This document shows, piece by piece, positions 9,111 to 55,180 of a stretch of 64,000 bases of DNA. Under the pieces are notes generated by a model that was not told the DNA's origin, ran no database searches, and saw only the letters and a program-made list of their open reading frames with translations. Where the stretch lies: NCBI GenBank assembly GCA_944324665.1, contig CALUXD010000002.1:352694-416693 (forward strand). Direction: 5' to 3'. Position 1 is the first letter of the stretch. Every line of letters begins with the position of its first letter. A program made the position numbers and the translations under genes. The DNA is from Candidatus Proelusimicrobium volucris. GTDB taxonomy: Bacteria; Elusimicrobiota; Elusimicrobia; Elusimicrobiales; Elusimicrobiaceae.

Positions 9111-9179
9111 TTTGGGTTCCCCTTTAATGCGATATATTACATATATCATTTTAGCAAAAAAAACCTTAACTGTGACGGT

Positions 9180-10246: not shown

Positions 10247-11185
10247 TTAACTTAACAAAATCCTTATACAGGAAGTGCAGTCGTAACTTTTTGCGTAATC
10301 CAAAGCGGTACGTTGGTGCCTGTCGGTCAATTCTTCGTTGGCGCCAGATTCTATAAGGAATGTCATTATATTGCCCTTATGTTCTTGGGCTGTTATCATT
10401 AACGGGGTAACCCCGTCTTTTTGGGTTCCCTGGTTAATGTCTGCTCCATATTCCAAAAGCACCTGTATCATTGTATTTGCGGGATATGGCGCGGAAGCGG
10501 TATAGTTTTCCCCCGTTACGGCGCGATGTATTGGGGCATAGCCTTTATCGTCGTAGATATCCATTGAGGCTCCTTTCTCTATCAACATTCTTAGCATATC
10601 CTCACTGCCGTTTGATATTGCCATAAATATAGGAGTAAAAGAGGTATTCTTTTCCGGCGAATTTACCGGTGCGCCTCTGTTTATTAAAGCCATAGCTTTT
10701 GGAATATCGTCGAAGTATACCGCGTCCATAAGTTCGCTGAAGAGTTCGTCCTTGGTCATTTTCTTGTTTCTATACTCGTTTTCAAAAGCGATGACTTGTT
10801 TTTTCTGTTTTTCTTTTAGGAAGTATTTTCTCTTGTCTTCCTTTTTTGCTGTATCTATGGTGTTTTGTTCCGTAGAGCCGCCCGTTATGTCTATGTAATT
10901 ATGTTGGGCGCTGCCGTCTATAAAGACCTCATCTATGGTTTCCTCTTTGTTTATGGAAGGCTTATATGTAAAGTTGGCATCTTTATCTTCTTGCGGCGCG
11001 GCTTGGGGTTCCGGCTGGATTTGAGAGGTCTGCGTCGGTGGCGTGGTTGTGGAAGACACCGACATTCCTACAAGTTCCTCCACGGCGGAAGATTGTTGCT
11101 TGCCGCTCTTTATTAAAGTATTCCAAAATCCCCAAACCACCCCTAACGCACAAAGCGCTATTATAATCTTTAATATGGTACGCAT
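10247..11185 (-). CDS. Ankyrin-repeat protein with an N-terminal signal anchor
   Basis: N-terminal TM ILKIIIALCALGVVWGFW, then a low-complexity linker. ANK repeats, e.g. GVTPLMITAQEHKGNIMTFLIESGANEELTD. Confidence 0.8.
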   Translation of the reverse strand: MRTILKIIIALCALGVVWGFWNTLIKSGKQQSSAVEELVGMSVSSTTTPPTQTSQIQPEPQAAPQEDKDANFTYKPSINKEETIDEVFIDGSAQHNYIDITGGSTEQNTIDTAKKEDKRKYFLKEKQKKQVIAFENEYRNKKMTKDELFSELMDAVYFDDIPKAMALINRGAPVNSPEKNTSFTPIFMAISNGSEDMLRMLIEKGASMDIYDDKGYAPIHRAVTGENYTASAPYPANTMIQVLLEYGADINQGTQKDGVTPLMITAQEHKGNIMTFLIESGANEELTDRHQRTALDYAKSYDCTSCIRILLS

Positions 11186-11332: not shown

Positions 11333-12757
11333 ATGCATAGAAACAAAAATTTATGTAAAATCGTAGCGACGATAGGGCGTATTGACGGACGCGAAGACCT
11401 TATCGAGAAGCTTTATTTGGCGGGAGCGACGGTATTCAGAATGAATCTCAGCCACGCCTCCGTAGCGGAAAATGCAAGAAAGATAGAGATAATCCGCGGC
11501 CTGGAAAAGAAGTACGATTGCGCTTTGGGCGTGATCTTTGATTTGCAGGGCCCTAAACTTAGGGTCGGCGTTTTTGAAAACGAGTCGGTAGTTTTAAAAG
11601 ACGGTCAAGAATTTATCTTAGATATGAATCCTAAACCGGGCGACGAAACACGCGTAAATCTGCCGCATAAGGAAATTTTTGAAGTCATAAAGCCGGGCAA
11701 CGTTTTGCTTTTTAACGATGGTCTTATAAGGGTGGAAGTTTTGTCCGTAACGCCCGAGGAAATAAAAACCAAAGTTATAAACGGCGGAGTATTATCCGAC
11801 CATAAAGGCGTGAATGTTCCCGATGTTTCACTTCCCATATCGGCATTGACTGAAAAGGATATGGAACAAATAAAGCAAGCGGCGGAGTTGGATGTCGATT
11901 GGTTTGCTCTTTCGTTCGTGCAGAAGCCTGAGGATGTTGTCTTTGCGCGTCAGTTGATAAAGTCCAAAGCGGGCATAATATCCAAGATAGAAAAGCCTTC
12001 GGCGATAGAACATCTTGATAAAATTATAGAGTACTCCGACGTAATAATGGTGGCGCGCGGCGATTTGGGCGTAGAACTAAGCCCCGAAAAAGTACCCGTA
12101 ATGCAAAGGCGCATAATAACCAAGTGCCGCGAGGCGGGCAAACCTGTGATAGTGGCCACACAGATGTTGGAATCTATGATAACCAACGTTAATCCGACCA
12201 GGGCGGAAGCTTCCGACGTGGCGACTGCTGTATATGAAGGAGCAGATGCCGTTATGCTTTCGGCCGAAACGGCCAGCGGGCAGCATCCGGTGGAAGCGGT
12301 AAGTACTATGTGCCGTATAATAAAGACTGTGGAAGCCGAGCCTATGTTTAAGGATAATATGAAGCTCAATACGGCGAGCCTTGGCGACGACAGTTCTTCA
12401 GCCGCGGCGATAACTACTGCAGCCGGCGTGGTAGCAAATTTGATAGCTTTAAGCGATTTTATAATTAACTTTACCGATTCAGGCACCACGACGTTAAGAA
12501 CGGCGCGTCAGCGCCCGTGCCTGCCGATACTTTCGCTTACGCCGCATATAGACGTAGCGAGAAAGATGTCAGTAGTATGTGCCGTTACCGCCATGGTGGT
12601 AAACGACTTGACCCGCTTTGAAGATATAGAACGCGAGACCAGAGCTGCGGCCAAGAAATTTGGCTTTGGCGAGAAAGGTACCCAAGTGGTAGTGACAGCC
12701 GGTATACCTTTTGGATCTTCGGGCGATACTAATCTGCTGTATGTTATAACTTTATAG
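11333..12757 (+). CDS. pyk: Pyruvate kinase
   Basis: Full-length match to pyruvate kinase hallmarks (KIVATIG, FRMNLSH, MVARGDLGVE, ATQMLESM). SD AAGGGAG upstream. Confidence 0.95.
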   Translation: MHRNKNLCKIVATIGRIDGREDLIEKLYLAGATVFRMNLSHASVAENARKIEIIRGLEKKYDCALGVIFDLQGPKLRVGVFENESVVLKDGQEFILDMNPKPGDETRVNLPHKEIFEVIKPGNVLLFNDGLIRVEVLSVTPEEIKTKVINGGVLSDHKGVNVPDVSLPISALTEKDMEQIKQAAELDVDWFALSFVQKPEDVVFARQLIKSKAGIISKIEKPSAIEHLDKIIEYSDVIMVARGDLGVELSPEKVPVMQRRIITKCREAGKPVIVATQMLESMITNVNPTRAEASDVATAVYEGADAVMLSAETASGQHPVEAVSTMCRIIKTVEAEPMFKDNMKLNTASLGDDSSSAAAITTAAGVVANLIALSDFIINFTDSGTTTLRTARQRPCLPILSLTPHIDVARKMSVVCAVTAMVVNDLTRFEDIERETRAAAKKFGFGEKGTQVVVTAGIPFGSSGDTNLLYVITL

Positions 12758-12780
12758 ACAACTATGGCCATAAACGTAGA

Positions 12781-12809
12781 ACGCCCTATATGATATAGGG
12801 CGTTTTTTT
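12781..12809 (+). terminator. Rho-independent terminator of pyk
   Basis: 10-bp stem acgccctata / tatagggcgt with a 3-nt loop, followed by TTTTTT. Confidence 0.85.
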
Positions 12810-12833
12810 GTATCTCATAGGATATATGGCAAT

Positions 12834-12901
12834 TAGGTCTTAGGACCTATTGAAGATTGGGCCTTTAAACTCTTGAGAAAAGAAATACTCTCTGTTAAAA
12901 T
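12834..12901 (+). promoter_or_regulatory. Promoter region of giant gene 1: inverted-repeat box, -35 TTGAGA and extended -10 TGTTAAAAT
   Basis: IR TAGGTCTTAGGACCTA at 12834-12849, -35 at 12873-12878, a 17-nt spacer counted to the hexamer, and TGnTAAAAT at 12893-12901. The layout is mirrored upstream of giant gene 2. Confidence 0.45.
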
Positions 12902-12964
12902 ATAAATAGAAGAAGTATAAATTTAACGGTGAAATTTATATTGTTGTCGAAAACGGTGAAAATT

Positions 12965-15900
12965 ATGAATAAAAAAATTATGTCGGCAAGTATGAAATTT
13001 GTATCTTTAATTCTCAGTGCTGTTATGGTGTTTGAAAGCAGCGCTCCCGCCTATGCGCAAGCCAGAAGGCTGCCTTATGAAGGCGGGCGCCAGATAATGG
13101 TTTTTGACGGTAAGAAACTTCTGGAAGAGAAAATGAAGATGGATATGGTAATCCCCGCAGACAATACCAGAGTGGTTCGCCCCAAATATATCAGACCGCA
13201 AATACTGGATAACCCCATTTGGCAAAAAGCTGAAAGGATAAAGATGGAGTTGCTTTTGGGATCTAAAGGCTCCGCGAAGGAGAGCGAAGAAACTTCATAC
13301 GAACCGTTAAACTACAAGCAATTTTATGCCGAGTACGAAAAAGCGGTAAATTCGCAAGCCGACAAATATAAAAAGGATAATGAATCGTTAAAGAAGCAGG
13401 CGTTGCTTGAGATGAATATGCAGGCTGAAAAATATCTGCTGAGCGGCGAATATTCCGAGGCCGATATCGCCGCTTGGAAAACTCAAGAAACAGCCAATAT
13501 AGACAAATGGCTTAAAGAAGAGCAAGGCAAAATAGAGAAAATAAGGACGCAGGAACTTTCAAAAGCAAAAGCCAGCTTTGAAGAATATACAAATGAAGTA
13601 AATGCCGCGGCGGACCTCTATAATAAAGAGATATTTGAGGAAGTTCAAGGCAAAATAAACGAACTGTTCACCTTGTATAAGAATAATCCCAATTTGGAAA
13701 AGGAATTGAGATACACTTTATTTACCACAGTTCCTTTGTTTATCTCCATGAATTATAACGGCGAAAATTTGTTAAACGCCGAGCAGGAAAAAATCATTTT
13801 TGATTTTGCCTTGGATCAATTGGAAAAGCCTATAACGCTGCAAACGGATTCCGCCAACCCGTATATATCCGCGTTGACGGTTTTTGCCGCTTTGGGCCAA
13901 GTTGGCGACGGCGGATCCACGGCGGTAAAGAGAATGGTTTTCAGCAGTGTTGAGGCCCCGCAATTTCATTCTTATTTGCTTCTTACGGCCGTTTCGGCCC
14001 TTCTCGCGGTAAAGGATTATGGCGCGATAAGGGATATTTTAAGCTACTTTAATCAGCAAGAGTCCATATTTGAAACTATGGATTTACTCAGCGTTGCAAA
14101 TTGGGTGGATTACTTCCAAACGATAAACGGCAAATATTTAGGCAATATGTCTTCATTGGCTCAATACCAGTTGGAAGACGGCACTGTTGCCAACGCCTAT
14201 ACCGATATAGCTTTGATGTTGGCGGAAGAAGGCAGCCCTCAAGCACTGGAATTGCTTAAGAATTTCGGCGTTGATAAATGCGTTATGACGCTTGATTTTG
14301 CCTTTAATCTTAAAGACCATTTCTCCCCCCGCTGCGGCGGCATAAAACCTTTTGTGGCAGGAGCCTTAATGAGCGGCAAGGCTGGCGCGGAGAGATATAC
14401 CGGCCCGTTTGTTAAGAAAACTGTCGGGCAGCAGGAATTTACTTCCGACGGGCGTGTAAGAATGGTGACGTCCGATGAAGTAAATAGGGTTGCCTCTGCC
14501 ATAGATACAAATATGAGCAGATTTAAAGCTGGGCAGAAAGAAAGCGGAATGAGCGCCAATGCTTTTATGGCTTTGAATTTGATTAACGAAGCGCTGGGCG
14601 ATATAGGCGTCGCACAAGAATCTTTCATAGATACGGCAATGCTTAAGCAGTACAAGAGCGAGATAGCCAATACCATGCTTGGTAAAGGCGCGATAGTAGA
14701 TGACGCCCGCCGCGCAAGCAAAGAAAAAGGGCAAACTATTTACAAATATGCAAAAATTACGGGCAATATTTTGGATGTGGGCATATTGGTATGGTGTGCC
14801 TGGGACTTGGCTAAACTGGCCCGCGGTATTTACTCTTTAGGCCGCGGAGCTTATGCCGCTTTCAGATTGTCCAGAGTAGGAACTTCGGCGCAGAGAATGG
14901 CCTATATAACCAGCCATTTGCCGCATTTGCGCAAATATTCCTCTGCCGCCAAGTCTGTTGCCAAATTTACGGCCCGCGTCAAGAACGGCATGGAGCCCGT
15001 GGTCTTGGCTCAGAGGGCTTTGTATACTTCTGCGCCGCTGCCTAAGATTGCCGGTGTGGGCTATGAAGGCACCGCAGTCGCTAAAACTTTGGCTACGGCT
15101 TCTTTTGATGCGGCGAAAGGCGGATATGTTATAAACGCGGCTGAGGCTTACAAATCTTCTGCGGGCCAACCCGGAAGAGTGCTTGATATCGTCAATACGA
15201 GAAAAGCCTTAGACGCTGGTGCCGCTTCGGCCCAAGAGTCTTTTGCAAACAGGGGTTTCTTTGAAAAATACAGAGGATACAGAGGTTATCTCTCCGATGC
15301 TACGAAGGAGGCCTTTAATGCAGGTAAATTTGATCAATACTCTTTGTCTGCGGGAATAGATTTCTCTAACGGTATTGCCAGTGCCAGAAACGTAAAGTGG
15401 AGAGCGCCCGTAACTTCCAATAACGTAAATTATTTGGCCAGACCTTTAGGCACTTCGGCTATGCCGGGCACTTTGGAACTGCATCATAGAAGCGCAGTTG
15501 GAATGGACGCAGAGCCTTTGCCGGTAAACGTAACGATTGAAAAGAAAATCCCCACCATCAAATCCAATGAGGTAACCAATGTCCTTTTAACCGGGGAAGA
15601 CGATGTAATGCTTTCCATAACGAAACAGCAGAAGCTTCCTTTCTATTACAGATGGATGTCGAAAGCGGCCGAATCCAAATTGATGCCGCAGAGCTGGTCT
15701 AACGGGATAGAAAGATGGGTAAGCAATTGGCGCGCCGAAAAAGAGTTTAAACTTGTAGACCCGGACTTCTTTAAGATAGGGTTAGACAATGAAAGTTTTG
15801 CCAATTTAGCCAAGATGTCTTATGCCGGTTCTACACCTTTAAACCTCAAATTTATGGGTGAGCGCACTGGCTTTGCCGGCAAGGTCGGCGGTTGGTTTAC

Positions 15901-17872
15901 CAACTCTTTTGCCGGGAAGAAGAGTTTATTCCCCGGTACGGGAACGGTTTTCGTAAGGGAAGGCGAGTTGTTGAGGCCGACTTCAATCAAACTTTCCACG
16001 CAGAAGCCTTTCGACGGAATACAGCTTATAGTAAACGAGAATAATACCATTTCATTGCTTGGCAAGGGCGCCAGCGGCACGATGACGGGCTTGAATGTTC
16101 CGTTCTCCTTGTCTTTGCCCAAGGGAGAGCTGCCTAACTTCCTTAAATATGCTTCCAACGGCAATTTTAACAATCCGTTTAATCTCTCTCTTACTGGCGC
16201 GAAGAATAAACTCAATACATTGTTTGCGGTGCAATTTCTCTCCTTGAGTGCGGCGTCTACCAGCTTGGTGGGCCCGTTAAGACAAAACTATCCCGATATA
16301 TCTAACACCGAGGTTGCATTGATATCAATAGTCTTGCCTTATGCATCGAGTTTCTTGTCTCCGTTCTGGGCGCCTTTTGTAAAGAGATACGGTTCGGCGA
16401 ATATGGTTAAGGCGAGTTTGGGTTTAGCCGGTCTTTCACTTACGATACCGATGTTCTCCGGCTTCCACGGCTTTGGCGACGTAAATTATATGAACCCCAA
16501 TAAACCGTCCATCACGCCCTTGCTTATCAGCGGAACTTTGATAGGTTTATCTTCTTCGATAACCAGGGCCTCGTTTAACCCCTTGATGGACAAGATGGGC
16601 GGCGGTGCAGGGTTGCTTAAAGGTATGGCTTTTAAGAATTTAAGTTCCTTTGCGATGTTGGCGCCTTCCTTGGGCGCGGCGTTATGGGACGCGGCCGATC
16701 CCAGATATTATACTGATGCCGACGGCAATTTCCTCTATAACGACAAGGGCGAAAAGATATTGCATTCTCATACAGACTTCTCGCTGTACAATCCCTTGTT
16801 GCTGGGTATTACGGGCGGAGTATTCTTGGCGTTCCAATCGGCTAGAATGCCTTCGCAGATAGGGAAGGTAAAAGGATATACGATGTCGCAGTTCGCCAAA
16901 GGCTTAAACGGTACGAATATGTTTGCAAGAGGATTTAACAGCGTTTACAGACCTGTTGCCGGCACATTGGCGGAAACTTGGAATGCCACAAAAGTTTTGG
17001 GCAAAAAAGGTGTTTGGCCGATAGCTTTAGCTTCTACGGCGGCTTTGGGTGTGGAATCTTCGTTGCTTTACAACTACAGCCAAACCGAGTCTAACAGATA
17101 TACGGCTAACTATATTTCCAATGATGCCGTTAAACCGGTAATAGCCACTTTGGCCCTTACGATACCGCCTTTCTTGGTAAGGCTTGAATCCAAACCGATA
17201 CTTAAACTGTTTGGCGGAGCGAACAATCCCGAAACATATAAACGTTTGATAGGTGCTTCGTTGGGATCCGCGGCCGTTGGAACAGCCTTATTGGCTACGG
17301 AAGATAATCTTGCCACATTTATACCAGGTATGGCTTTGGTAGGTATGGGTTTTGCCAATACGACTAACGGACTTTTGAAGATAGGCGAATATAATCTTAA
17401 AGCCGCTAAAGCTACGTCAAGTATGCTGACGGGGTATAAAGTAGCTTATCCTGGCGTGCATATAGGTATGGCAATATTCCCTAAAATGTTCAGCGGTGCG
17501 GCTGACAGCCAACTCGAAAAAGATCCTACTATCGAGAAATACGAAGCTTTGCAGGATAATATCTGGATACCCGCTTTGACTTTGGGCGGCTCAGCTTTCT
17601 TCTATGGATTAGGATCGGGATTATTCAAGTTTAAGTCTTTACCAAAGCCTTCACTTAGAATACCCACCGGCTTGCCCGCTTTTGCAAGATTCGGAATCGG
17701 ATCTCCCTCGGTGATGATGCAAGATTGGAGAAATAACGGGTTATTGCTCAATAACGACTTTGGTCAAATGAACATAACAACCCCCTCCGCCGAGCTGGAA
17801 GATATATTGTCAACCGACGAGGCAGAAGCTGAAGAAGAAATTCAATCTTCCGATGCGGCCGCTGCCGAATAA
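12965..17872 (+). CDS. Giant envelope protein (1,635 aa): signal peptide, long N-terminal region and a C-terminal 12-helix MFS-like domain (family member 1)
   Basis: Uninterrupted 4.9-kb ORF. Signal-like N-terminus MNKKIMSASMKFVSLILSAVMVFESSAPAYAQ. The C-terminal ~520 aa contain 6+6 hydrophobic helices. Paralogue of 18153-22841. Confidence 0.8.
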   Translation: MNKKIMSASMKFVSLILSAVMVFESSAPAYAQARRLPYEGGRQIMVFDGKKLLEEKMKMDMVIPADNTRVVRPKYIRPQILDNPIWQKAERIKMELLLGSKGSAKESEETSYEPLNYKQFYAEYEKAVNSQADKYKKDNESLKKQALLEMNMQAEKYLLSGEYSEADIAAWKTQETANIDKWLKEEQGKIEKIRTQELSKAKASFEEYTNEVNAAADLYNKEIFEEVQGKINELFTLYKNNPNLEKELRYTLFTTVPLFISMNYNGENLLNAEQEKIIFDFALDQLEKPITLQTDSANPYISALTVFAALGQVGDGGSTAVKRMVFSSVEAPQFHSYLLLTAVSALLAVKDYGAIRDILSYFNQQESIFETMDLLSVANWVDYFQTINGKYLGNMSSLAQYQLEDGTVANAYTDIALMLAEEGSPQALELLKNFGVDKCVMTLDFAFNLKDHFSPRCGGIKPFVAGALMSGKAGAERYTGPFVKKTVGQQEFTSDGRVRMVTSDEVNRVASAIDTNMSRFKAGQKESGMSANAFMALNLINEALGDIGVAQESFIDTAMLKQYKSEIANTMLGKGAIVDDARRASKEKGQTIYKYAKITGNILDVGILVWCAWDLAKLARGIYSLGRGAYAAFRLSRVGTSAQRMAYITSHLPHLRKYSSAAKSVAKFTARVKNGMEPVVLAQRALYTSAPLPKIAGVGYEGTAVAKTLATASFDAAKGGYVINAAEAYKSSAGQPGRVLDIVNTRKALDAGAASAQESFANRGFFEKYRGYRGYLSDATKEAFNAGKFDQYSLSAGIDFSNGIASARNVKWRAPVTSNNVNYLARPLGTSAMPGTLELHHRSAVGMDAEPLPVNVTIEKKIPTIKSNEVTNVLLTGEDDVMLSITKQQKLPFYYRWMSKAAESKLMPQSWSNGIERWVSNWRAEKEFKLVDPDFFKIGLDNESFANLAKMSYAGSTPLNLKFMGERTGFAGKVGGWFTNSFAGKKSLFPGTGTVFVREGELLRPTSIKLSTQKPFDGIQLIVNENNTISLLGKGASGTMTGLNVPFSLSLPKGELPNFLKYASNGNFNNPFNLSLTGAKNKLNTLFAVQFLSLSAASTSLVGPLRQNYPDISNTEVALISIVLPYASSFLSPFWAPFVKRYGSANMVKASLGLAGLSLTIPMFSGFHGFGDVNYMNPNKPSITPLLISGTLIGLSSSITRASFNPLMDKMGGGAGLLKGMAFKNLSSFAMLAPSLGAALWDAADPRYYTDADGNFLYNDKGEKILHSHTDFSLYNPLLLGITGGVFLAFQSARMPSQIGKVKGYTMSQFAKGLNGTNMFARGFNSVYRPVAGTLAETWNATKVLGKKGVWPIALASTAALGVESSLLYNYSQTESNRYTANYISNDAVKPVIATLALTIPPFLVRLESKPILKLFGGANNPETYKRLIGASLGSAAVGTALLATEDNLATFIPGMALVGMGFANTTNGLLKIGEYNLKAAKATSSMLTGYKVAYPGVHIGMAIFPKMFSGAADSQLEKDPTIEKYEALQDNIWIPALTLGGSAFFYGLGSGLFKFKSLPKPSLRIPTGLPAFARFGIGSPSVMMQDWRNNGLLLNNDFGQMNITTPSAELEDILSTDEAEAEEEIQSSDAAAAE

Positions 17873-17900
17873 TATATAGAAATGTCATAAGAAGTTTTAA

Positions 17901-17930
17901 AAATTCCCCGGTAAAAACCGGGGAATTTTT
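17901..17930 (+). terminator. Rho-independent terminator of giant gene 1
   Basis: Stem aaattccccgg / ccggggaattt with a 6-nt loop and a T-run. Confidence 0.85.
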
Positions 17931-18034
17931 ATTGGGAAAGATATCTTTGCAATAGAATATTTTCCCCCCTTAAAGAGTATTTATATAAACCTAATTGAAG
18001 CGGAAACGGATTATTTTTTATGATCGTTAAGGCT

Positions 18035-18102
18035 TGGGTCTTAAGTCCTAATTGTCAATGGGTCTAAATTCTCTTGTGTCAAGCCTTGCTTGCTGATATA
18101 AT
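18035..18102 (+). promoter_or_regulatory. Promoter region of giant gene 2: IR-like box, -35 TTGTGT and extended -10 TGATATAAT
   Basis: Box TGGGTCTTAAGTCCTA at 18035-18050, -35 at 18074-18079, a 17-nt spacer, and TGnTATAAT at 18094-18102. Confidence 0.5.
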
Positions 18103-18152
18103 GATAATAAGGAGTATAAGGTTTTCTCTTCTTTTCAAAGGTGATAATTATT

Positions 18153-21100
18153 ATGAATAAACATATGTATAATATAGCAAGGAAATCAATATCATTGATA
18201 TTATCCGGTGTATTGCTTTTTGAGTGCAATGCTCCGGCATTGGCGTTAGACTATGGGAATATTTCTTATGATTCGCAAGCGCTTGAGCTTGAAGAAAAAA
18301 TAGATAATGCTTATATAAAAGAAAACACTTCCGTAGGGCAATATGATGCCGTAATCGCTAAGGAAGTAGCCAAGCAGAAAGAAATAATAAAGCCTTTGGC
18401 AGAAAAGATGGTTTCATATAGGGCGGCCGGCAATAAGAAGTATGGCGGCAACTTTTTTAGGGCTTCGGCTTATACAGGTGCGGTTTCTACGAATACCGTG
18501 GGAAAATTGGTCTATGAATTAAAGAGGTTCTTAGCCGGTTTTTATGCCCAACGCAGAATAATGCCTTTTAACGAATTTAAGAAACAATATTCCGAATTTA
18601 TCACTAATGAAGCTAAGCAGTATGCTAAAGAGAATAACTACACCTTTAACTCCAATAACTCTACCGTAAACGATATCGTCAAGGAAATAGAGAAACAGTA
18701 TCCTGCGCAGAAGATGTATAAGGAGTATGTAAGTATAGCGCAGAAAGAACTTAATTGGTACAAGGCCCACGAACAGAAACTAAACGAAGCCGCTTACCAA
18801 ATTTTGAGAGAATATGTAAAAGCCTTGGGCGTCAATATGAATTATGAAGCCGCCCGCTTGCTGTTAAACTTAAAGATTAACAATAAAGACGTGGTAACCT
18901 CTGCCGAAAAGCAGGAACTCTACAACTATATAACCTCTAGAATTAAAGAAGTAGATTTAAAATCTGCTTTTGACTTTGGCATTTTAAAATCCAATAAAAA
19001 AGGCAGAACGAAAGTCGCTGGCAAAATGCTTCAGGACATCATAGACCTTATGATGTTGGGCGTTTATGTAGTTCCGCAGAACGATTCCGCCTATTCGGAA
19101 GCGGTAGTATCTTTAATAGATAAAAGTATGGATACGGCGGCGTTTCCGCATATTCTTAATGCCGGTTTTTCCGCATTGCTGACATTAAAACGTTATGATA
19201 AATTAAATATTATTTTAGATAAATATACGAATATTGAAGCGAAGGGAACATCTTTTGTTGATGCGCTCTCTTTTCAATTTTTTGTAGATTCTTTTAACAA
19301 TATTCAAGGCAACTATTTGCGCGGCGCCGCTTCAAAGGGGGCGCAATACACCACGGAATATGGGTACAGAAACGCGTTTGAAGATATTGCCGTATTGTTG
19401 GCTGAGGAGGGCTCTAAAGACAGCTTGGCTCTTTTAAAGAAATACGGCGTCAATAATAATAGGCCGATAATGCCGTTCCTGGCGGGCGCGTTGCTGGCCG
19501 GTAAAGCCGGGGCCCAAGCCAGTGAATCTTCTAAGAAGATGGGTTTGGATCCCGATTCCTACTTGGCGTTGAAAATCGCCAACACTTCAATGGGAGATTT
19601 GACTTTGACGCAGGAAAGCGATTTGGATATGGCTTTACTGTTGAAGTATCCCGCTATCAAATCGCATTTGGGCAGCGGCGCGATAGTAAATCAAAACAGC
19701 AAAAATTCCAAAAAGACTTCCCGTAAGGTTTATGATTACGCCAGTAACGCGGCAATGGCCGGTGATGTGGCGTTTATGGTATGGGCTACCTTTGACTTGG
19801 TAAGGCTGGCCGGTAAAGCCGTATCTTTGGGCAAAGCGACATATATGGCCGGGAAGATAGCGAAAATAACCGATCCTGCGCTCAGGCTTAAAGCTACTTT
19901 GGGCAATATGTCAAAAATTAGGCCCTACGTATCTGCGCGTTTGGCATTGAGAGGTTTTTCTGGACGTGTTAAAGGCGCGATGGCTGGCGTTGTTCTTGCC
20001 CAGAGGAATTTATATACTTCCGAGGCTTTGCCTGCGGTAGTTGGCGGCGGCGCGGCGAATACGACCGTGGCCAAGGCTTTGGCTACTACTTCATTCGATA
20101 TGGGAAAAGGCGGTTTGGTAATAGACAAAGCGGCGGCTTATAAGGCCTCGGCCGGCGCTCCTAACAGAGTGTTGGACATAATGAATACCCAGAAGGCTTT
20201 AAACGTAGCAAATGCTAATGCGACGCAGAAATTCTTTGCCAAGAGCTTCTTTGAGAAATATAAAAAATATCCCAATATCCTTGCCAGAGAAACCAGAAAC
20301 GCTTTCCGTCAGAGCAATTTCAGAGGCCGCAATTTTGAAGCGGCGATGGATTTCGGTTATAACTTAAAGGGCTTGGTACCCGGTATCCAAACACCTGAGA
20401 GAGCTTCCGCCATGGCACATATAAATTGGCTTTCCAGACCTTTAGGCACTACTGCGAAAGGTACCGGTTCCTTGGAGCTTTTCTACAGAGCGTCTGAGGC
20501 GGACGACCCTATGCCTTTGCCCGTGAATATAACTTTGGGCGAGAAGAAAATCCCCAACATTAAAGCCGATAAAGTAAGCAATGTATTATTGACCGGTCAA
20601 GAAAATGCGGCTTTCAAATTGGCTTTTGAACATGAAAATGTACTCGTCAACCCGACATTCTTTAAAGTCGGATTGGATAACGAAAATTTCGCGAATTTGG
20701 CCAGATTGACTTTGGGCGGCACAAAAGAGCTTAAAATCAAACTTTTGGCGGAAAATACCAGCCTTGCCGCCAGAAGCAAGAACTGGTTTTTAGATCTGTT
20801 CCGCAATAAGGACAAAATAATGTCCGGTACAGGTTCGGTCTGGATAAAAGAAGGTTCTGCGTTGCGCTCTACGCCTATCAAGTTGTCTACGCACAAGGAT
20901 TTTAACGGCGTAAAGGTTCTAATAGATGAAAACAATAAGGTAAGCATACTTGGAAGGAGTGCTATGGGCGCGAAACCTACTCCTTTTACCTATCCTTATT
21001 CTTTCTCTATACCTAAGAGTGAGCTGCCCGTATTTACGCAGTATGCTAAACTGGGCAATTTCAATACTCCGCTCAATATAACGCTTAACGGCGCCAGAGA

Positions 21101-22841
21101 TAAGGTAAACACCTTATATGCCGTACAGTTCCTTTCGCTCAGTGCGGCGTCTACGGGTCTTATCGGGCCTTTAAGACAGAACTATCCGGAAATGAGCAAT
21201 ACTCAGGAATCCTTGATAACGGTAGCTTTGCCTTATCTTCCGAGTTTCCTTTCTCCGTTTTGGGCGCCTTTCGTAAAGAGATTCGGCTCCGCAAATATGA
21301 TGAAGGTCAGCTTGGGCCTTGCGGCCAGCTCTTTGGCACTTTCTACGGCGACAGGGTTTGGCGGCTGGAGCGACGCTAATATTTACAACTTGGACAAACC
21401 GTCCTTGACGCCTTTGCTGTTTAGCGCGGGTTTTATAGGATTGTCTTCCTCTTTAACGAGAGCCGCTTTTAACCCCTTGATGAAAGAAATGGGCGGCGGC
21501 GGCGGATTGCTCAGGGGTATGATGTATAAAAACTTGAGCTCTTTTGCTATGCTTTTGCCTCCGGCGGTTTTCACAGTTTGGGATGCGGTTGATCCCCGCT
21601 ATTATACCGATACCGGCAAGATAGACGGAAATCCGATTGTTTTCCAAGGCGATGATGTTTACGGGACGGACGGTTCTTTGGTAATTGCAAAAGGCCAACC
21701 GATAGTTGACAAAGACGGATTACCCTTAAAACACAGTCATGTTGACTTCTCAATATCCAATCCCGTACTTTTGGGTATAACCGGTGCTATCTTATATAAA
21801 TTCCATACGGCGCACATGTCCAGGCTGATAGGCGCTGTTCCGGGCTATACTCTTGGCCAATCTATAAAGCCTTTGGCCGGCAATTCCAAATTCATGTATT
21901 ATTTCAACAATAACTTATACAGGCCTACTTTTGGGGTGTTGAAAGAAAGCGTGAATTCCACAAAAGTAATGTTCAGGAAAGAAGTGTGGCCGATAACGGC
22001 AGCCGGATTTGGCGCTTTGGGCGTGGAAGCCTCGTTATTTAACAAATATAGTCAGAACGAGGCAAACAACTACCTTACGGATGTGCGTTTATTGGGAGTA
22101 AATGTGGGCGATCCGGTTCTGAGGCCTATAGCCGCAACTTTCTTGCTGGCGGTGCCGCAATTCTTAGTAAGATACAAATCCAAACCGCTGATTGCGAAAC
22201 TTGGCGGGGAGTCTAATCCTCTTACTTATAAGAAACTGATAGGGCTCTCATTGGGTTCGGCCGCGGCCGGTACGGCGCTGTTGGCGACGGAAGATAACTT
22301 CTGGACTTTCGCGGCGGGTATGTCCTTGCTGGGTATGGGTTTTGCCAATACGACTAACGGCTTCTTGATGATCGGCGAAAACAACCTTAAACGCGCAAAA
22401 GTGGCCGAAAGTATTCTTACGGATTGGAAAGTTGCCTATCCTGCGGTACACGTCGGTATGTCTTTAATACCGCTGGCGCATAACTACGTTTCCGATAATG
22501 AAGTGGCAAACAACCCAGAAGGCGTTACCAAACTGCAGGCTATGCAGAACAACATTTGGATACCGGCCGCGGTATTGGGCGGTACCACTTTGGGATTCCT
22601 CAAAGGTGCGGACTTGATAAAAGCGGGACGCGTAGCCAATATGTTTACGCCGGTCAAACATGGTGCGGCGATGGGTGTTCCGTACTTTATGTTAGACAGG
22701 TGGAATACCAATTTGTTCAAACCGAGTTTTACGCCTAATTTTGCTCAGCCTAGTTTTGACTTCAAACCTTTGGGCGTACCGGCTTATAATTTGAACAATA
22801 TAAACACATCTTCTTTAAATCTTGAAGAAAGCGAAAAATAA
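18153..22841 (+). CDS. Giant envelope protein (1,562 aa), family member 2
   Basis: Uninterrupted 4.7-kb ORF. AAGGTGA SD before the ATG at 18153. Collinear similarity to member 1, including LYAVQFLSLSAAST, FLSPFWAPFVKR.GSANM and GMGFANTTNG. Confidence 0.8.
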   Translation: MNKHMYNIARKSISLILSGVLLFECNAPALALDYGNISYDSQALELEEKIDNAYIKENTSVGQYDAVIAKEVAKQKEIIKPLAEKMVSYRAAGNKKYGGNFFRASAYTGAVSTNTVGKLVYELKRFLAGFYAQRRIMPFNEFKKQYSEFITNEAKQYAKENNYTFNSNNSTVNDIVKEIEKQYPAQKMYKEYVSIAQKELNWYKAHEQKLNEAAYQILREYVKALGVNMNYEAARLLLNLKINNKDVVTSAEKQELYNYITSRIKEVDLKSAFDFGILKSNKKGRTKVAGKMLQDIIDLMMLGVYVVPQNDSAYSEAVVSLIDKSMDTAAFPHILNAGFSALLTLKRYDKLNIILDKYTNIEAKGTSFVDALSFQFFVDSFNNIQGNYLRGAASKGAQYTTEYGYRNAFEDIAVLLAEEGSKDSLALLKKYGVNNNRPIMPFLAGALLAGKAGAQASESSKKMGLDPDSYLALKIANTSMGDLTLTQESDLDMALLLKYPAIKSHLGSGAIVNQNSKNSKKTSRKVYDYASNAAMAGDVAFMVWATFDLVRLAGKAVSLGKATYMAGKIAKITDPALRLKATLGNMSKIRPYVSARLALRGFSGRVKGAMAGVVLAQRNLYTSEALPAVVGGGAANTTVAKALATTSFDMGKGGLVIDKAAAYKASAGAPNRVLDIMNTQKALNVANANATQKFFAKSFFEKYKKYPNILARETRNAFRQSNFRGRNFEAAMDFGYNLKGLVPGIQTPERASAMAHINWLSRPLGTTAKGTGSLELFYRASEADDPMPLPVNITLGEKKIPNIKADKVSNVLLTGQENAAFKLAFEHENVLVNPTFFKVGLDNENFANLARLTLGGTKELKIKLLAENTSLAARSKNWFLDLFRNKDKIMSGTGSVWIKEGSALRSTPIKLSTHKDFNGVKVLIDENNKVSILGRSAMGAKPTPFTYPYSFSIPKSELPVFTQYAKLGNFNTPLNITLNGARDKVNTLYAVQFLSLSAASTGLIGPLRQNYPEMSNTQESLITVALPYLPSFLSPFWAPFVKRFGSANMMKVSLGLAASSLALSTATGFGGWSDANIYNLDKPSLTPLLFSAGFIGLSSSLTRAAFNPLMKEMGGGGGLLRGMMYKNLSSFAMLLPPAVFTVWDAVDPRYYTDTGKIDGNPIVFQGDDVYGTDGSLVIAKGQPIVDKDGLPLKHSHVDFSISNPVLLGITGAILYKFHTAHMSRLIGAVPGYTLGQSIKPLAGNSKFMYYFNNNLYRPTFGVLKESVNSTKVMFRKEVWPITAAGFGALGVEASLFNKYSQNEANNYLTDVRLLGVNVGDPVLRPIAATFLLAVPQFLVRYKSKPLIAKLGGESNPLTYKKLIGLSLGSAAAGTALLATEDNFWTFAAGMSLLGMGFANTTNGFLMIGENNLKRAKVAESILTDWKVAYPAVHVGMSLIPLAHNYVSDNEVANNPEGVTKLQAMQNNIWIPAAVLGGTTLGFLKGADLIKAGRVANMFTPVKHGAAMGVPYFMLDRWNTNLFKPSFTPNFAQPSFDFKPLGVPAYNLNNINTSSLNLEESEK

Positions 22842-22859
22842 GTTTGCTTTAGAGATAAG

Positions 22860-22888
22860 AAGGGCCGCATTTGAGGCGGCCCTTTTTT
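22860..22888 (+). terminator. Rho-independent terminator of giant gene 2
   Basis: Stem aagggccgc / gcggccctt with a 7-nt loop and a T-run. Confidence 0.85.
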
Positions 22889-23036
22889 ATCGGGCTTTTT
22901 AATAAGGCGATAAAACCTTTGTAAACTAGAATTTTTTGTTTTTCCGCATATTTCGATTAAGGCAAAGGGCAAATTTTGGAATCCCCCCTCTGCCTTGCGG
23001 TCTTTGCCAGATTTATTTAATATAATTTAAAGTGAT

Positions 23037-23780
23037 ATGAATATTATGCTTGAATTATACAGAAAAATAAAAAAAAGAGCTTACGCCCTGCTTAACGCGG
23101 GCTGGTTTGTAAGTTTCATATTGGTATTGATATTCCTCAATATCCCGCTTTCGATTTTTTCGCTTTCCGGCAGTCTTACGCCAGATGATATTATCGCGAT
23201 AGAATTTTGCGATCTTCTTATAACGATAGTATTTTCGATTGAATATATTTTAAGGCTTTGGACGGCGGATTTATCTCCGTATTACAAGGGCAGCCGTCTG
23301 CGTTTTGCCCTGCGCCCGGAAATGATTATAGACTTTTTGGCTATAGTTCCGATGGTATACATCAACATTAAGCCTTTAAGAGCGCTTAGATTTTTAAGAC
23401 TCTTCAGAATATTGAAACTTGTAGAATATTCCCAGCCGCTTAAATTAATGCTGAAGGTAATATATCAGAATATGGACTCGTTGGTAACCACTGCTTTTGT
23501 TATGGGTTTTCTGCTTACGATAAATTCGTTTTTGATTTATTATTTTGAGCATGATGCCCAACCTGAGGTTTTTAAGAATATATATGACGCCATTTGGTTT
23601 ACGGCTATGACGTTTTGTCAGGCGGGTGCGGATATATCGGTTGTAACTCAGGCGGGAAAATTCCTTAAGATACTCACGGCGTTTTCCGGGATAATGCTTT
23701 TTGCGGTATATTCCGGTATATTTTCTTCTGGTTTTATGAATGCGCGCAAGGCCGCCAAGGAGAAGAAGGAAAATGCCTGA
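23037..23780 (+). CDS. Six-TM voltage-sensor-type ion channel family protein with an atypical pore
   Basis: S4-like LRALRFLRLFRILKLV with a basic residue at every third position. The pore region reads WFTAMTFCQAGAD where K+ channels have TVGYGD. Confidence 0.75.
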   Translation: MNIMLELYRKIKKRAYALLNAGWFVSFILVLIFLNIPLSIFSLSGSLTPDDIIAIEFCDLLITIVFSIEYILRLWTADLSPYYKGSRLRFALRPEMIIDFLAIVPMVYINIKPLRALRFLRLFRILKLVEYSQPLKLMLKVIYQNMDSLVTTAFVMGFLLTINSFLIYYFEHDAQPEVFKNIYDAIWFTAMTFCQAGADISVVTQAGKFLKILTAFSGIMLFAVYSGIFSSGFMNARKAAKEKKENA

Positions 23781-25188
23781 TGGCGGATTTATAGAGAACT
23801 ACACAAGGAACAGAACTTTTGCTTTTTTCATAGTGGTTATAGGCAATTTTATAGGCGCGCTGGATTCCAGCGTGGTAAATATAGCTTTGCCGGTGATGTC
23901 GAAATATTTTAATGTCGGCCTGATAGAAATACAGTGGATAGTAACAATATACTGTTTGGGGATAGTAAGCATTTTGCCCATAAGCAGCAAGTTGGGCAAC
24001 AAATATGGACAGAACAGGGTATACAGCTGGGGTTTTATGCTTTTTGGGGTAGGCTCCTTATTATGCGCTTGTTCGACTTTTCTTTTGGCTTTGATAGTAT
24101 CTCGTTTTATACAGGCTTTGGGCGCGGCGATGCTGTTTGCTTTGGCGCAGGGCGTGGTGGCGAGTATGTTCACCGGTGTGAAGCGGGGCCAATTTTTGGG
24201 TATGATAGGCTCCGTAGTGGCTTTGGGCAATATAACGGGGCCTAGTTTGGGCGGTATGCTTTTGGATGCGTTTGGCTGGCAGTCTTTATTCTACATAAAT
24301 TTGCCTTTGGCGGCCTTTGGCGCCTATTTCGCATATAAGACGCTGCCAAGCGTAAAAAGACGCAAATTAGGTAAAATAAACTTAAATTCGGCCATTCTGT
24401 TTATAGTTTTGAGCATGTGCTTCTTTACCGCGCTTTCTTTGGCTGAAAAAGCCGGTTTTACCAGCCCGCACATATTGTTTATGTTAACGCTCTCGGCTAT
24501 ATTGGGCATAGTGCTTTACAGACACGAAAGAAAAACCAAAACCCCTCTTTTAAATTTGAGTTTATATTCCAACAAGGTGTTTGCTTACGGCAATATGGCG
24601 ATGATGTTGGTGTTCATCGCGATCAACGTCAACGGTCTGCTGATACCGTTTTATTTGCAGGATATATACGGTTTAAGCGCGTTCAAAACGGGTACTTTAA
24701 TACTGTTTTACTCTGTTCCTTTGATAGTTGTGGCGCCGATAAGCGGTTGGCTTTCTGGCAAAATAGGTTCAAGGAAACTTACCGTTTGTTCGATGATAGT
24801 AGTTATCTGCGGTTTATTGTGGTATATGGGATTGGGGGCGGAGTTTAAGGAATATCAAATTATTCTTGGACAAATGATATTGGGTATAGGTAACGGAATG
24901 TTTAATTCTCCCAATAATAACAGCATAATGAGTGCGATAGAACGAAAATACTACAATGACGCCAGCGGTTTAAACTCTTTGGCGAGGAATACGGGGATAG
25001 TCGTGGGGGTGGCTCTTACGGTGAATATTTTTGACGGTTTGCTTAATTTGTTTCAAAATGGCGGGGCGGACCATATTTCTGCGTTTATATCGGCCTATCA
25101 TTTAACTTTGATTTTGGCGATAGTTACCGCGGCTGCGGCGGGAGTGCTATCGTATCTCGGCAAGGAGCCCGACAGAAAGCTGCTTTAA
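23773..25188 (+). CDS. MFS transporter, DHA2 (14-TM, EmrB/QacA-like) family
   Basis: ~14 hydrophobic helices with MFS-like loops (LGNKYGQNRVY). The ATG at 23773 follows AAGGA and overlaps the upstream stop. Confidence 0.8.
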   Translation: MPDGGFIENYTRNRTFAFFIVVIGNFIGALDSSVVNIALPVMSKYFNVGLIEIQWIVTIYCLGIVSILPISSKLGNKYGQNRVYSWGFMLFGVGSLLCACSTFLLALIVSRFIQALGAAMLFALAQGVVASMFTGVKRGQFLGMIGSVVALGNITGPSLGGMLLDAFGWQSLFYINLPLAAFGAYFAYKTLPSVKRRKLGKINLNSAILFIVLSMCFFTALSLAEKAGFTSPHILFMLTLSAILGIVLYRHERKTKTPLLNLSLYSNKVFAYGNMAMMLVFIAINVNGLLIPFYLQDIYGLSAFKTGTLILFYSVPLIVVAPISGWLSGKIGSRKLTVCSMIVVICGLLWYMGLGAEFKEYQIILGQMILGIGNGMFNSPNNNSIMSAIERKYYNDASGLNSLARNTGIVVGVALTVNIFDGLLNLFQNGGADHISAFISAYHLTLILAIVTAAAAGVLSYLGKEPDRKLL

Positions 25189-25241: not shown

Positions 25242-26591
25242 TTAAGAACGGGTTGATAGCCTCTCTTTCTTCGCTTTTAGAAATATCGGTATTCCTATCG
25301 CAAAGAATATTGCCGCCATTGCCAAATATTTAAGATTGGCCGCGTAAATCAGCCATATCGCATATATGGAGCCCAATATTCCTGTAATCATTATTTTGAC
25401 GCGGCTTATCCCCCATTCGCTTTTATAATGTTTTCTGCGGCCGTTTTGAATCAAATAGATAGTGGTTACCAGATAGGCGGGCAAAATCATTACGGCGGTT
25501 ATGTTTAGCATAGTTTCCCAAGCATTTGCCGAGAAAAACGCTATAAAAAGGGCCGCCTGCATACATATCGTGGTAATCAGTAGAGAGAAAGTCGGCGCGG
25601 CGTTTTCGTTCTCTCTGGCGAAGGCTTTGGGGAATGTGCCCTCTTTTGCCGCCGCGTAAGGCGCTTCTATTGAGATCAACTCCCAAGAAAGCCAAGCGAA
25701 AAGCACCGATATAATCAAGCCCAAATTCATTATAATCGCACCCGCCTTGCCTATCGCCGCCTCCAATACCCCGGCGGTCGAAGGATTGGCGTAGGAGGCT
25801 ATGTCCTCTCTTGCCAAAAAGCCGAAAGGAAGCAGGGAAATTAACATATATACGGCCAAACAGGACAAGAATCCCAACAAAGTGGCTTTGGCTACATCGC
25901 TTTGCTTTTTTGCTCTGCCGGAGAGCACCACCGCCGATTCTATCCCGATAAAGCACCACAGCGTTACCACCATAGTGGAACGGACATTTCCCATCAATTC
26001 TTTTACGCTGAAAGAGCCCGATAGAATATTGGCCGTCAAAGCCTCTTTGAAGACGTCCCACTTAAACATTACGAAAGCCGCAATTATAAAAAATATCAGC
26101 GGCATAATTTTTGCTATCGTGCCGAATAAATTCACCAAAGCCGCCGTTTTTATACCCTTTCTTATCAAGATCATAAAAGACCATATTATCAGGCTTGAGA
26201 GCAGAAGCGCATTTAAATTGTTCCCCCCTTCGAAATAGGGCGGGAAGAAGTAATTTAAGGCTTCCATCATGATTACCGCCATCGCTATATTGGAAAATAC
26301 GTTCGAAAGCCAATATCCCCAAGCGATAAAAAAGCCCGTCCTTTTGCCGAACCCGTCCTTTGCATAGGCGAATATACCTGCCGTCAGCTTCGGCTTAATG
26401 TTGGATAATATTCTAAAGGTTTCTGCTATAAAGAACATACCCAGCCCGGTTATAATCCATGCCGTAAGTACGGCGTCGGCCGGGGCAGCCGCGGCCATAT
26501 TCTGCGGAAGCGAGAATACGCCCGATCCCATCATGGAGCTTACGACAAGCCCGCAAAGGCCCGCTATGCCAAGTTTCATTGAGGTTTTCAT
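25242..26591 (-). CDS. APC-superfamily basic amino acid/polyamine antiporter (APA family, ArcD-like), copy 2
   Basis: N-terminal SSMMGSGVFSLPQNMA signature and ~12-13 TM helices. The ATG at 26591 overlaps the upstream TGA (ATGA). Confidence 0.85.
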   Translation of the reverse strand: MKTSMKLGIAGLCGLVVSSMMGSGVFSLPQNMAAAAPADAVLTAWIITGLGMFFIAETFRILSNIKPKLTAGIFAYAKDGFGKRTGFFIAWGYWLSNVFSNIAMAVIMMEALNYFFPPYFEGGNNLNALLLSSLIIWSFMILIRKGIKTAALVNLFGTIAKIMPLIFFIIAAFVMFKWDVFKEALTANILSGSFSVKELMGNVRSTMVVTLWCFIGIESAVVLSGRAKKQSDVAKATLLGFLSCLAVYMLISLLPFGFLAREDIASYANPSTAGVLEAAIGKAGAIIMNLGLIISVLFAWLSWELISIEAPYAAAKEGTFPKAFARENENAAPTFSLLITTICMQAALFIAFFSANAWETMLNITAVMILPAYLVTTIYLIQNGRRKHYKSEWGISRVKIMITGILGSIYAIWLIYAANLKYLAMAAIFFAIGIPIFLKAKKERLSTRS

Positions 26592-27973: not shown

Positions 27974-28123
27974 CTCTCGTAACTTTACACCTTCCAATAA
28001 AAAAAATAAGCGTTTAAAAAAACGCTAATAGAAATTTTACTAAATTTTGATATTTTCTTTTATATATTTTTCCCAATCTTTTTAAAGCTCCTTGTGCTGT
28101 ATATAATATCTAAAACTGCAATA

Positions 28124-43950: not shown

Positions 43951-44153
43951 AAAATATGCCTCCAAATGGTTTTATATATTATACATAATTAAGTTGTGGC
44001 GAAATATATAAGTAAAAAGGATTATCAGAAAGGTTATCTTATCTTTATTTGCGATATTCTTTCTATGACGGAACTATCCAAACAGTTTGCCTTGGCTTTC
44101 AATTTTAATGCTACAATACAAAATAAGTATATGTACAGATGAGGTTTTGTTTT

Positions 44154-51506: not shown

Positions 51507-52052
51507 ATGAAAAAAATAACTGCATTAATGTTTGCTTTCTTGATGCTCGTGACGTTTGCTTCCGCTCAGAAGACAAATGCCGCCGCCGAGAAAGCGACCG
51601 CGTCCGAAACATCAATAACCACCGATGGCCAAAAAGATACCACGGTAGAATATAACGGTATAGTTATTTCTATCCCTAAAGGGGTAAAAGCTACGGTGTC
51701 CAAAGATGCTAAGGGCAATATCATTGTTTCAGGTTCTGATCTCAATGGGGTAAAAATTGACGGAGAAACTGTAAACAGCACCGGTAAAACGACTCTTTCA
51801 ATCAATGCTTCCACCAAAGTGATGACAGTAAAGGAAGGTAATAACGTAACGGTAACCAATGCCAAAGGCCAAACGTATTCCGTAAAAGCCGGGCAAACTA
51901 CCGCCCAAGCTGCCGCGACCGTTACAACGGCTAAGCCGGCCGCGAAAGCGGAAGTCGTTCCCGCTTTCGTATTGCCCAGCACGGAAAGTGCTGCTAACCA
52001 GCAGACCGTGCAGAACGTGGAAGAAACGTTGAGCCCGTCTTCACCGCGTTAA
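51507..52052 (+). CDS. Secreted Thr/Val/Lys-rich hypothetical protein
   Basis: AGGAG SD and signal peptide MKKITALMFAFLMLVTFASAQ. No family recognised. Confidence 0.6.
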   Translation: MKKITALMFAFLMLVTFASAQKTNAAAEKATASETSITTDGQKDTTVEYNGIVISIPKGVKATVSKDAKGNIIVSGSDLNGVKIDGETVNSTGKTTLSINASTKVMTVKEGNNVTVTNAKGQTYSVKAGQTTAQAAATVTTAKPAAKAEVVPAFVLPSTESAANQQTVQNVEETLSPSSPR

Positions 52053-55168: not shown

Positions 55169-55180
55169 AATTTCCTCCCG

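Follow-up and report, generated by a model that had tools for sequence, protein, structure and literature searches.

Tandem genes for very divergent MFS-fold proteins with large N-terminal extensions in Candidatus Proelusimicrobium volucris

In this study, we analyzed two adjacent genes, A and B, in a 64-kb stretch of DNA (the window) from Candidatus Proelusimicrobium volucris, a bird-gut Elusimicrobium of the Elusimicrobiaceae. A and B are genuine paralogous genes, apparently transcribed separately and constrained along their whole length, and they encode inner-membrane proteins that form part of a small, rare and very divergent branch within the major facilitator superfamily (MFS). On the basis of structure prediction, the assignment of the C-terminal ~500 amino acids (aa) of both proteins to a 12-helix MFS fold is sound, and the branch is extremely divergent. 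Ahead of this domain, both proteins carry about 1,000 further residues that are predicted to lie on both sides of the membrane. We favor the view, with a probability of roughly 0.55, that A and B are ion-coupled MFS secondary transporters with periplasmic capture or docking modules and cytoplasmic gating modules, restricted to this lineage.

Results

A and B are intact, collinear paralogues

The two genes are located as follows.

12965-17872, plus strand: gene A, 1,635 aa counted from the ATG; RefSeq WP_428066227.1, 'hypothetical protein'
18153-22841, plus strand: gene B, 1,562 aa; RefSeq WP_428066228.1, 'hypothetical protein'

As a preliminary description of this DNA had stated from the open reading frames (ORFs), the two genes are adjacent, collinear paralogues on the same strand. 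BLASTP aligned the two proteins over 1,315 columns (E = 0), from approximately residue 315 to the C-terminus, with 43% identity and 59% positives; the signal-peptide regions match too, and the rest of the first ~300 residues is barely alignable. The shared blocks listed earlier, VVLAQR.LYTS, FFK.GLDNE.FANLA, DPRYYTD, LLATEDN and GMGFANTTNG, all lie within this alignment. The blocks AVQFLSLSAAST and FLSPFWAPFVKR.GSANM lie there as well, with the correction of one misread residue (A has LFAVQF, not LYAVQF).

Gene callers disagree on the start codons, with lengths of 1,635 to 1,649 aa given for A and of 1,548, 1,562 or 1,579 aa for B, and the longest ORF form of A begins at GTG 12929. This disagreement is the sole point in favor of an artefact, in which the long ORFs would have arisen by misassembly, by fusion of neighboring genes or as pseudogenes, and such an origin is excluded for practical purposes. 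In a collection of 15 billion proteins, the exact A and B proteins, as well as that of a third paralogue in the window (gene C, described below), belong to 90%-identity clusters of 38, 43 and 35 members, respectively, which stem from many independent assemblies with contigs of up to 647 kb. The same full-length proteins recur in dozens of independent assemblies, which for practical purposes answers the concern, raised in the preliminary description, that the ORFs might be assembly artefacts or frameshifted. In addition, same-length orthologues occur in at least four other lineages, and nearly all complete family members are alike in length and domain order.

The ratio of nonsynonymous (dN) to synonymous (dS) substitution rates also argues against decay. 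Compared with the orthologous pair in another genomic locus (L001; 85% aa identity for A and 82% for B), dN/dS was 0.092 for A and 0.107 for B, and it remained at about 0.1 along the whole length. Each 150-codon segment with estimable dS gave a value below 0.2 (dS was saturated in three N-terminal segments), the membrane domain gave the lowest values (0.03-0.06), and dN peaked in the first 300 residues. A and B are intact genes under strong purifying selection.

The following transcription signals were found around the two genes.

12873-12901, plus strand: promoter-like site upstream of A, TTGAGA-17-TAAAAT, TG-extended; top score in the region (10/12)
17898-17931, plus strand: intrinsic terminator 3' of A, 15-bp stem, -22.3 kcal/mol, U-tract
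22854-22891, plus strand: intrinsic terminator 3' of B, -22.7 kcal/mol, U-tract

The pyruvate kinase gene upstream of A has its own hairpin and U-tract terminator (-18.4 kcal/mol). The z-scores of the three terminators ranged from -4.8 to -6.1, and no shuffled sequence was as stable. Because terminators stand after the pyruvate kinase gene, A and B, both A and B look monocistronic. The preliminary description had assigned each gene its own promoter-like element and a strong terminator; the strong terminators hold, but promoter-like hexamers occur at chance level, without enrichment (18 observed versus 19.2 expected from shuffles), and the site upstream of A is only suggestive. The G+C content in the window is ~41-49%, and no tRNA genes were found in the 64 kb.

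The C-terminal domain has a predicted MFS fold

16208-17632, plus strand: MFS-fold domain of A, residues 1082-1556, 12 transmembrane (TM) helices, assigned via 50-60% identity to the modelled domain of B
21102-22607, plus strand: MFS-fold domain of B, residues 984-1485, assigned by AlphaFold2 model and Foldseek

An AlphaFold2 model of B residues 940-1562, built from a 19-sequence family alignment, had 12 helices in a 6+6 arrangement, with a mean predicted local distance difference test score (pLDDT) of 74 and a predicted template modelling score (pTM) of 0.70. When this model was searched against PDB by Foldseek, 369 matches were obtained at E<=1e-3, and the best 50 were all MFS-type transporters, in good agreement with the 12-helix, 6+6 MFS-like domain previously read from the last ~520 aa. 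Among these 50, the top match was SLC15A4 (2.7e-8), followed by SV2A, NorC, DtpC and EfpA, and MHAS2168/Rv1410, MelB, NarK, FucP, Spns2 and YajR were also present. Sequence identity to the solved MFS structures was 10-15%, with target-normalised TM-scores of 0.50-0.69. Many of the top matches represent outward-open states, and the B model itself is outward-open.

At the sequence level, the Pfam matches of A and B to MFS_1 and MFS_2 (E 0.0035-0.064) all stayed below threshold, and NCBIfam gave nothing useful for the two proteins. The MFS_1-like signal that had been expected in the last ~520 aa is seen across the family: when ten family TM domains were scanned singly, eight matched MFS_1 at E<=0.1 (best 7.8e-9), and one family protein (P0017) carries a precomputed PF07690 match.

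The loops of the modelled TM helices are rich in K/R between helices 2-3, 4-5, 6-7, 8-9 and 10-11, and acidic or neutral between helices 1-2, 3-4, 5-6, 9-10 and 11-12. Because these charges follow the positive-inside pattern, the domain would have the N-in/C-in topology of MFS proteins. According to the modelled helices, WAPFVKRFG lies in the TM2-TM3 loop at the motif-A position, where it had been placed before. This position reads PFVKRFGSANMMK, in which the basic residues and Gly are kept and Asp is changed to Lys; WAPFVKRFGSANMMK, at the motif-A site of loop 2-3, has the canonical Asp substituted. Loop 8-9 carries an echo of the motif (VRYKSKP...LGGE) and reads VRYKSKPLIAKLGGE, with an invariant R1340 and an LGG pair in which the first Gly is invariant and the second nearly so. 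Several buried polar residues are invariant in the family, namely R1103 (TM4), K1126 (TM5), E1292 (TM7) and N1399 (TM10), and they fit a working transporter or a conformational switch better than a mere membrane anchor. The TM5-TM6 loop contains a predicted periplasmic, beta-rich insert of ~52 aa in B (DPRYYTD..., residues 1147-1198), which is shorter in A.

The N-terminal ~1,000 residues are predicted to span the membrane

The regions ahead of the MFS domain were delimited by inspection, region hidden Markov models (HMMs) and structure prediction, and four subregions (R1 to R4) are distinguished.

12965-13057, plus strand: signal peptide of A, residues 1-31, ending in SAPAYA before Q; n-, h- and c-regions and AxA site by inspection
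13058-14755, plus strand: predicted periplasmic all-alpha region of A, residues 32-597, with variable R1 and conserved R2, by homology to the B model
14756-14821, plus strand: linker hydrophobic helix of A, residues 598-619, ITGNILDVGILVWCAWDLAKLA; probable single membrane pass
14822-16207, plus strand: predicted cytoplasmic alpha/beta region of A, residues 620-1081, with helical R3 and beta-rich R4, by homology to B
18153-18245, plus strand: signal peptide of B, residues 1-31, ending in NAPALA before L, by inspection
18246-19754, plus strand: predicted periplasmic all-alpha region of B, residues 32-534, with R2 at ~300-534, by region HMMs and AlphaFold2
19755-19823, plus strand: linker hydrophobic helix of B, residues 535-557, MAGDVAFMVWATFDLVRLAGKAV
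19824-21101, plus strand: predicted cytoplasmic region of B, residues 558-983, with a basic low-confidence stretch, a helical part and a beta-rich part (~770-983)

From the signal peptide, the loop charges and one conserved hydrophobic helix, we infer a layout in which a signal peptide is followed by a ~500-aa periplasmic module, a linker TM helix, a ~420-aa cytoplasmic module and the MFS domain. The signal-peptide-like starts with an AxA site, noted earlier for A and B, are kept in all 20 aligned family members, where inspection revealed a basic n-region, a hydrophobic core and P-A-x-A; P28, A29 and A31 are nearly invariant across the alignment. The moderately hydrophobic middle segment, also noted earlier, corresponds to A 598-619 and B 535-557 and is conserved as D(I/V)AFMVWATFDL (Kyte-Doolittle 1.2-2.1), and the 30 residues C-terminal of it contain 3-8 K/R and 0-1 D/E in 20 of 20 sequences. 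Because the N-terminus would be exported and the residues before TM1 would be cytoplasmic, an odd number of passes is required, and the linker helix is the sole candidate; this segment is therefore most likely a true membrane pass.

In the AlphaFold2 model of B residues 1-1000, residues 62-530 are all-alpha (pLDDT 75-88), with long charged helices followed by stacked helix pairs, residues 534-632 have low confidence, residues 640-760 are mostly helical and residues 770-985 are beta-rich. No match at E<=1e-3 was found when this model was searched by Foldseek against PDB and BFVD. The 'HEAT-like' stretches of the preliminary description were not confirmed. In the model of B, helix-turn-helix pairs are stacked between residues ~280 and 530, as in HEAT, ARM and TPR solenoids, and the best, non-significant PDB matches were designed helical repeats, beta-catenin, importin/CRM1 and TPR proteins (E 5e-3 to 0.4, TM-score <0.25). 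However, B has no Pfam HEAT, ARM or TPR match and no Foldseek match at E<=1e-3, and the region is predicted to be periplasmic. We therefore use the term alpha-solenoid for the N-terminal module only as a description of the predicted model.

The earlier statement that no characterized protein has this architecture agrees with our searches. The N-terminal 1,000 aa had no match in Pfam, NCBIfam, PADLOC, or PDB sequence and profile searches, and RefSeq lists both proteins as hypothetical. In PDB sequences, phmmer with A and hmmsearch with the full family profile gave nothing meaningful, and the PADLOC anti-phage defence models matched A, B and C in 0 families.

The family is rare and has at least four members in this genome

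When B was used in a word-indexed search among 5.8 billion proteins, 19 matches of 1,460-1,653 aa were found. An exhaustive HMMER search with the TM-domain profile over 1.84 billion 50%-identity representatives (E<=1e-3) gave 81 relatives. The complete relatives are nearly all 1,400-1,830 aa long with the TM domain at the C-terminus, and no clear case of an ordinary-length MFS protein was seen among the 81. Stand-alone short versions of the TM domain were considered and rejected: the short matches inspected were mostly contig-edge fragments, several of which had no initial Met or ended inside the TM region. By region HMMs, R2 is the most widely shared N-terminal module, R1 (residues 30-300) is variable, and R3 and R4 are detectable in closer relatives. 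The weakest relatives (P0084-P0095; 700-1,280 aa, E 1e-6 to 1e-4) have a shorter N-terminal part of ~550-650 aa and sub-threshold MFS_1 matches, and the start of P0084 is a similar signal peptide; these proteins give hints of a broader superfamily of N-terminally extended MFS proteins. The identified hosts are Ca. Proelusimicrobium volucris, an uncultured Elusimicrobium sp. (locus L002) and an unclassified metagenome-assembled genome (locus L001), and a scan of genome contigs for relatives found two loci.

A third family gene lies in the same window.

46143-50837, minus strand: gene C, 1,564 aa; WP_428066263.1, RefSeq 'MFS transporter'; remote third paralogue

Gene C has the same layout as A and B: a signal peptide is followed by a hydrophobic helix at ~552-572, and the TM helices are C-terminal. 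As for A and B, searches of C in Pfam, NCBIfam and PADLOC gave nothing beyond MFS matches below threshold. One relative, P0018, bridges B and C, being 34% identical to B in its N-terminal 600 aa and 73% identical to C in its C-terminal 450 aa. With P0018 left out, hhalign of the C-type and A/B-type profiles gave 97.9% probability (E 4e-13, 247 columns) for R2 and linker and 95.7% (E 9e-9, 337 columns) for the TM domain. A fourth member, P0092 (WP_428065110.1, 2,029 aa), is encoded elsewhere in the genome of the same species; its residues 1-474 resemble A and its residues 615-1055 resemble C. The genome of Ca. Proelusimicrobium volucris contains at least four family members.

Gene order and neighboring genes

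The order of pyruvate kinase, A, B, Ion_trans and MFS_1 genes is kept in loci L001 and L005, and in L005 the upstream and downstream genes are orthologues of A (66%) and B (54%), respectively. In L004 (8341-15820, compared with 11333-23780 of the window), a B-type gene stands alone between pyruvate kinase and Ion_trans. The tandem in L001 and L005 together with the single gene in L004 indicates that the duplication is old and that the pair is not obligatory; the single gene may reflect either a lineage-specific loss or a gain at a later time. An A-B heterodimer as an obligate requirement was rejected, since the B-type gene of L004 occupies this site without an A-type partner.

Downstream of B, the Ion_trans gene (23037-23780, plus strand) encodes a 247-aa homologue of voltage-gated-type channels and overlaps the MFS_1 gene (23740-25188, plus strand) by 41 nt. 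This pair is kept in L004 and L005, ORFs of the same size and position are present in L001, and the two genes are probably co-transcribed. Farther downstream, two tandem amino-acid permease paralogues (25242-26699 and 26588-27997, both minus strand) overlap by 112 nt as listed, most likely because the start of the downstream ORF (25242-26699) is over-extended. On the other side of A, ankyrin-repeat proteins are encoded at 7842-9149 and 10247-11185 (both minus strand), at the same position as in L004 and L005, and the latter has a hydrophobic N-terminal leader. Ankyrin repeats are uncommon in bacteria and often host-directed.

Gene C is located between two polysaccharide-synthesis clusters, near porin genes at 44139-45428 (OprB) and 52077-53204 (BBP2_2). 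Four ORFs of 430, 466, 339 and 181 aa, at 53876-57737 (minus strand) and 51507-52052 (plus strand), have no Pfam match at E<=1e-3 and adjoin a sugar-transferase, glycosyltransferase and EpsG cluster at 57730-63912.

Discussion

The preliminary description had left three options for the function of A and B, namely a transceptor, an envelope scaffold or a transporter with a built-in capture module. Among these, we favor the transporter with a capture module, at the probability given above. In this reading, a Sec signal peptide would export the N-terminus of A and B. The ~500-aa periplasmic module, which is predicted to be solenoid-like, would consist of a fast-evolving outer R1 and a conserved inner R2 with a conserved polar patch, and, placed at the entrance of the outward-open cavity, it may capture the substrate or serve as a docking site for a partner in the envelope. 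A single conserved membrane helix with two Asp and one Trp would link it to a cytoplasmic alpha/beta module of ~420 aa, whose end is formed by a conserved juxtamembrane 'PK' element and which may act on the inner face by gating or regulation. With its N-in/C-in topology, the 12-helix MFS domain would perform ion-coupled transport by alternating access, and the paralogues A, B, C and the fourth member may handle different substrates. Transport itself, its substrate and the part played by each accessory module are speculative.

Several observations weigh against this reading. First, the MFS sequence signature is faint: Pfam MFS_1 (PF07690) scores 12.6 bits for A (E 0.064) and 16.8 bits for B (E 0.0035) against a gathering threshold of 33.4, the motif-A Asp is lost (FVKRFGS), and hhalign of the family TM profile with the bona fide MFS_1 gene 900 bp downstream (23740-25188) was not significant. 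Second, the linker helix has only a moderate hydrophobicity (Kyte-Doolittle 1.2-1.5) with two Asp inside, is flanked by basic residues on both sides, and has an AlphaFold2 pLDDT below 50; the model of B residues 1-1000, from 20 sequences, is itself of modest confidence (pLDDT 67.6, pTM 0.43). Third, the conserved residues of the cytoplasmic module are mostly hydrophobic, Gly, Pro and Lys, which gives no mechanistic hint and argues against a classical enzyme active site there. Finally, among the compared loci L001-L005, the distant members at L002 and L003 have unrelated neighbors, and synteny is confined to close relatives, so no operon partner can be inferred.

The loss of the motif-A Asp and the very weak MFS signature would also suit a transceptor or sensor, in which a non-transporting MFS domain serves as a ligand-driven conformational switch, with R2 as the sensor of a signal from the envelope or gut and the cytoplasmic module as the output. 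R2 (~300-535 in B) has conserved polar residues (Y348, E362, S394, Y399, N407, D411, D482 and D492), as expected for a ligand site, and large conserved soluble modules stand on either side of the membrane, joined via the conserved linker helix. However, no output domain (kinase, GGDEF, HTH or the like) was recognized in Pfam or NCBIfam, none of the conserved residues of the cytoplasmic module is acidic, His, Cys or Ser, and no regulator gene is conserved next door in the compared loci. Constraint is strongest in the TM domain, where the buried charges are retained, and this fits transport equally well. We consider a sensor role rather unlikely.

Compared with transport assisted by a capture module, an envelope-spanning exporter or tether appears quite improbable to us. 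Here, the fused periplasmic module would act as an EmrA-type adaptor that reaches the outer membrane or peptidoglycan, with a lipid, glycolipid or drug as cargo, or else the protein would tether the two membranes. The long charged helices of R1 (20-35 residues in the AlphaFold2 model of B) are the fastest-evolving part (dN 0.22-0.31), as might be expected if R1 faced the surface or a partner, the organism is diderm with OprB and BBP2 porin genes in the window, and gene C lies beside these porin genes between the polysaccharide-synthesis clusters. In addition, the best Foldseek matches of the TM model include the lipid and drug exporters NorC, EfpA, MHAS2168/Rv1410 and Spns2, but the list mixes importers and exporters at similar scores and is non-discriminating. 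EmrAB-TolC-type efflux systems resemble A and B by analogy only, as an MFS protein with an elongated helical periplasmic part in a diderm cell. Their adaptor is a separate HlyD-family protein, whereas A and B have no HlyD/MFP, lipoyl or beta-barrel adaptor signature in Pfam or NCBIfam, no HlyD fold match, no adaptor or TolC-docking hairpin among the listed Foldseek matches, and no adjacent gene for TolC or another outer-membrane factor. Moreover, this explanation leaves the 420-aa cytoplasmic module without a role.

A further, bolder proposal, which we put forward tentatively and at rather low odds, is a compartment-bridging MFS machine made of a single polypeptide. An exported solenoid, a charged linker helix packed against the transporter and a cytoplasmic module would all be coupled mechanically to alternating access, and the two N-terminal modules would represent folds or families that are new and confined to Elusimicrobiota-like bacteria. 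If true, one chain would link the periplasm or outer membrane to the cytoplasm, as a trans-envelope exporter or a transporting receptor.

Whichever role applies, A and B can be placed beside known MFS transporters such as SLC15A4/POT, SV2A, NorC, EfpA, MHAS2168, NarK and FucP. They share with these the predicted 12-helix 6+6 fold and the N-in/C-in loop charges, and the A/B family likewise keeps the basic-plus-Gly half-motifs (loops 2-3 and 8-9), the TM4 Arg and an acidic residue in TM7. They differ in their low identity (10-15%), their sub-threshold Pfam scores and the missing motif-A Asp, and complete members of the A/B family add ~1,000 N-terminal residues that would extend from the periplasm through the membrane into the cytoplasm. 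Fusions of accessory domains to MFS proteins are known, for example SV2A with a luminal domain, PepT1/2 with extracellular Ig-like domains, YajR with a C-terminal YAM domain, LplT-Aas and TLC-HEAT fusions. Such proteins have one accessory domain of ~60-300 aa on one membrane side, in a loop or at the C-terminus. A and B resemble them in joining a soluble module to an MFS core, and SV2A and YajR are among the structural matches. The addition in A and B is instead N-terminal, ~1,000 aa long, equipped with its own signal peptide and an extra pass, and predicted on both membrane sides, and Pfam and Foldseek revealed no sequence or fold similarity between it and the known accessory domains.

In conclusion, the MFS core fold of A and B is already known, but for their N-terminal extension of ~1,000 aa, which carries a signal peptide and a linker helix and is predicted to lie on both membrane sides, we could find no counterpart in Pfam, NCBIfam, PDB, BFVD or the searchable literature, where texts on Elusimicrobium MFS proteins, Proelusimicrobium and MFS proteins with fused periplasmic domains gave no description of the family. 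Few membrane proteins have been studied as well as MFS transporters, yet the A/B branch escapes curated sequence models, and in every complete member examined the MFS domain is welded to ~1,000 residues of unrecognized sequence. The present analysis provides a structural annotation (MFS fold, proposed topology and domain boundaries) for proteins listed as hypothetical in RefSeq. Should the accessory modules prove to be coupled to the transport cycle, this family would offer a natural transporter with built-in capture, gating or signalling, together with two new domain families. With at least four such genes, amounting to roughly 20 kb under strong purifying selection, these proteins are probably central to the envelope or nutrition of Elusimicrobium.

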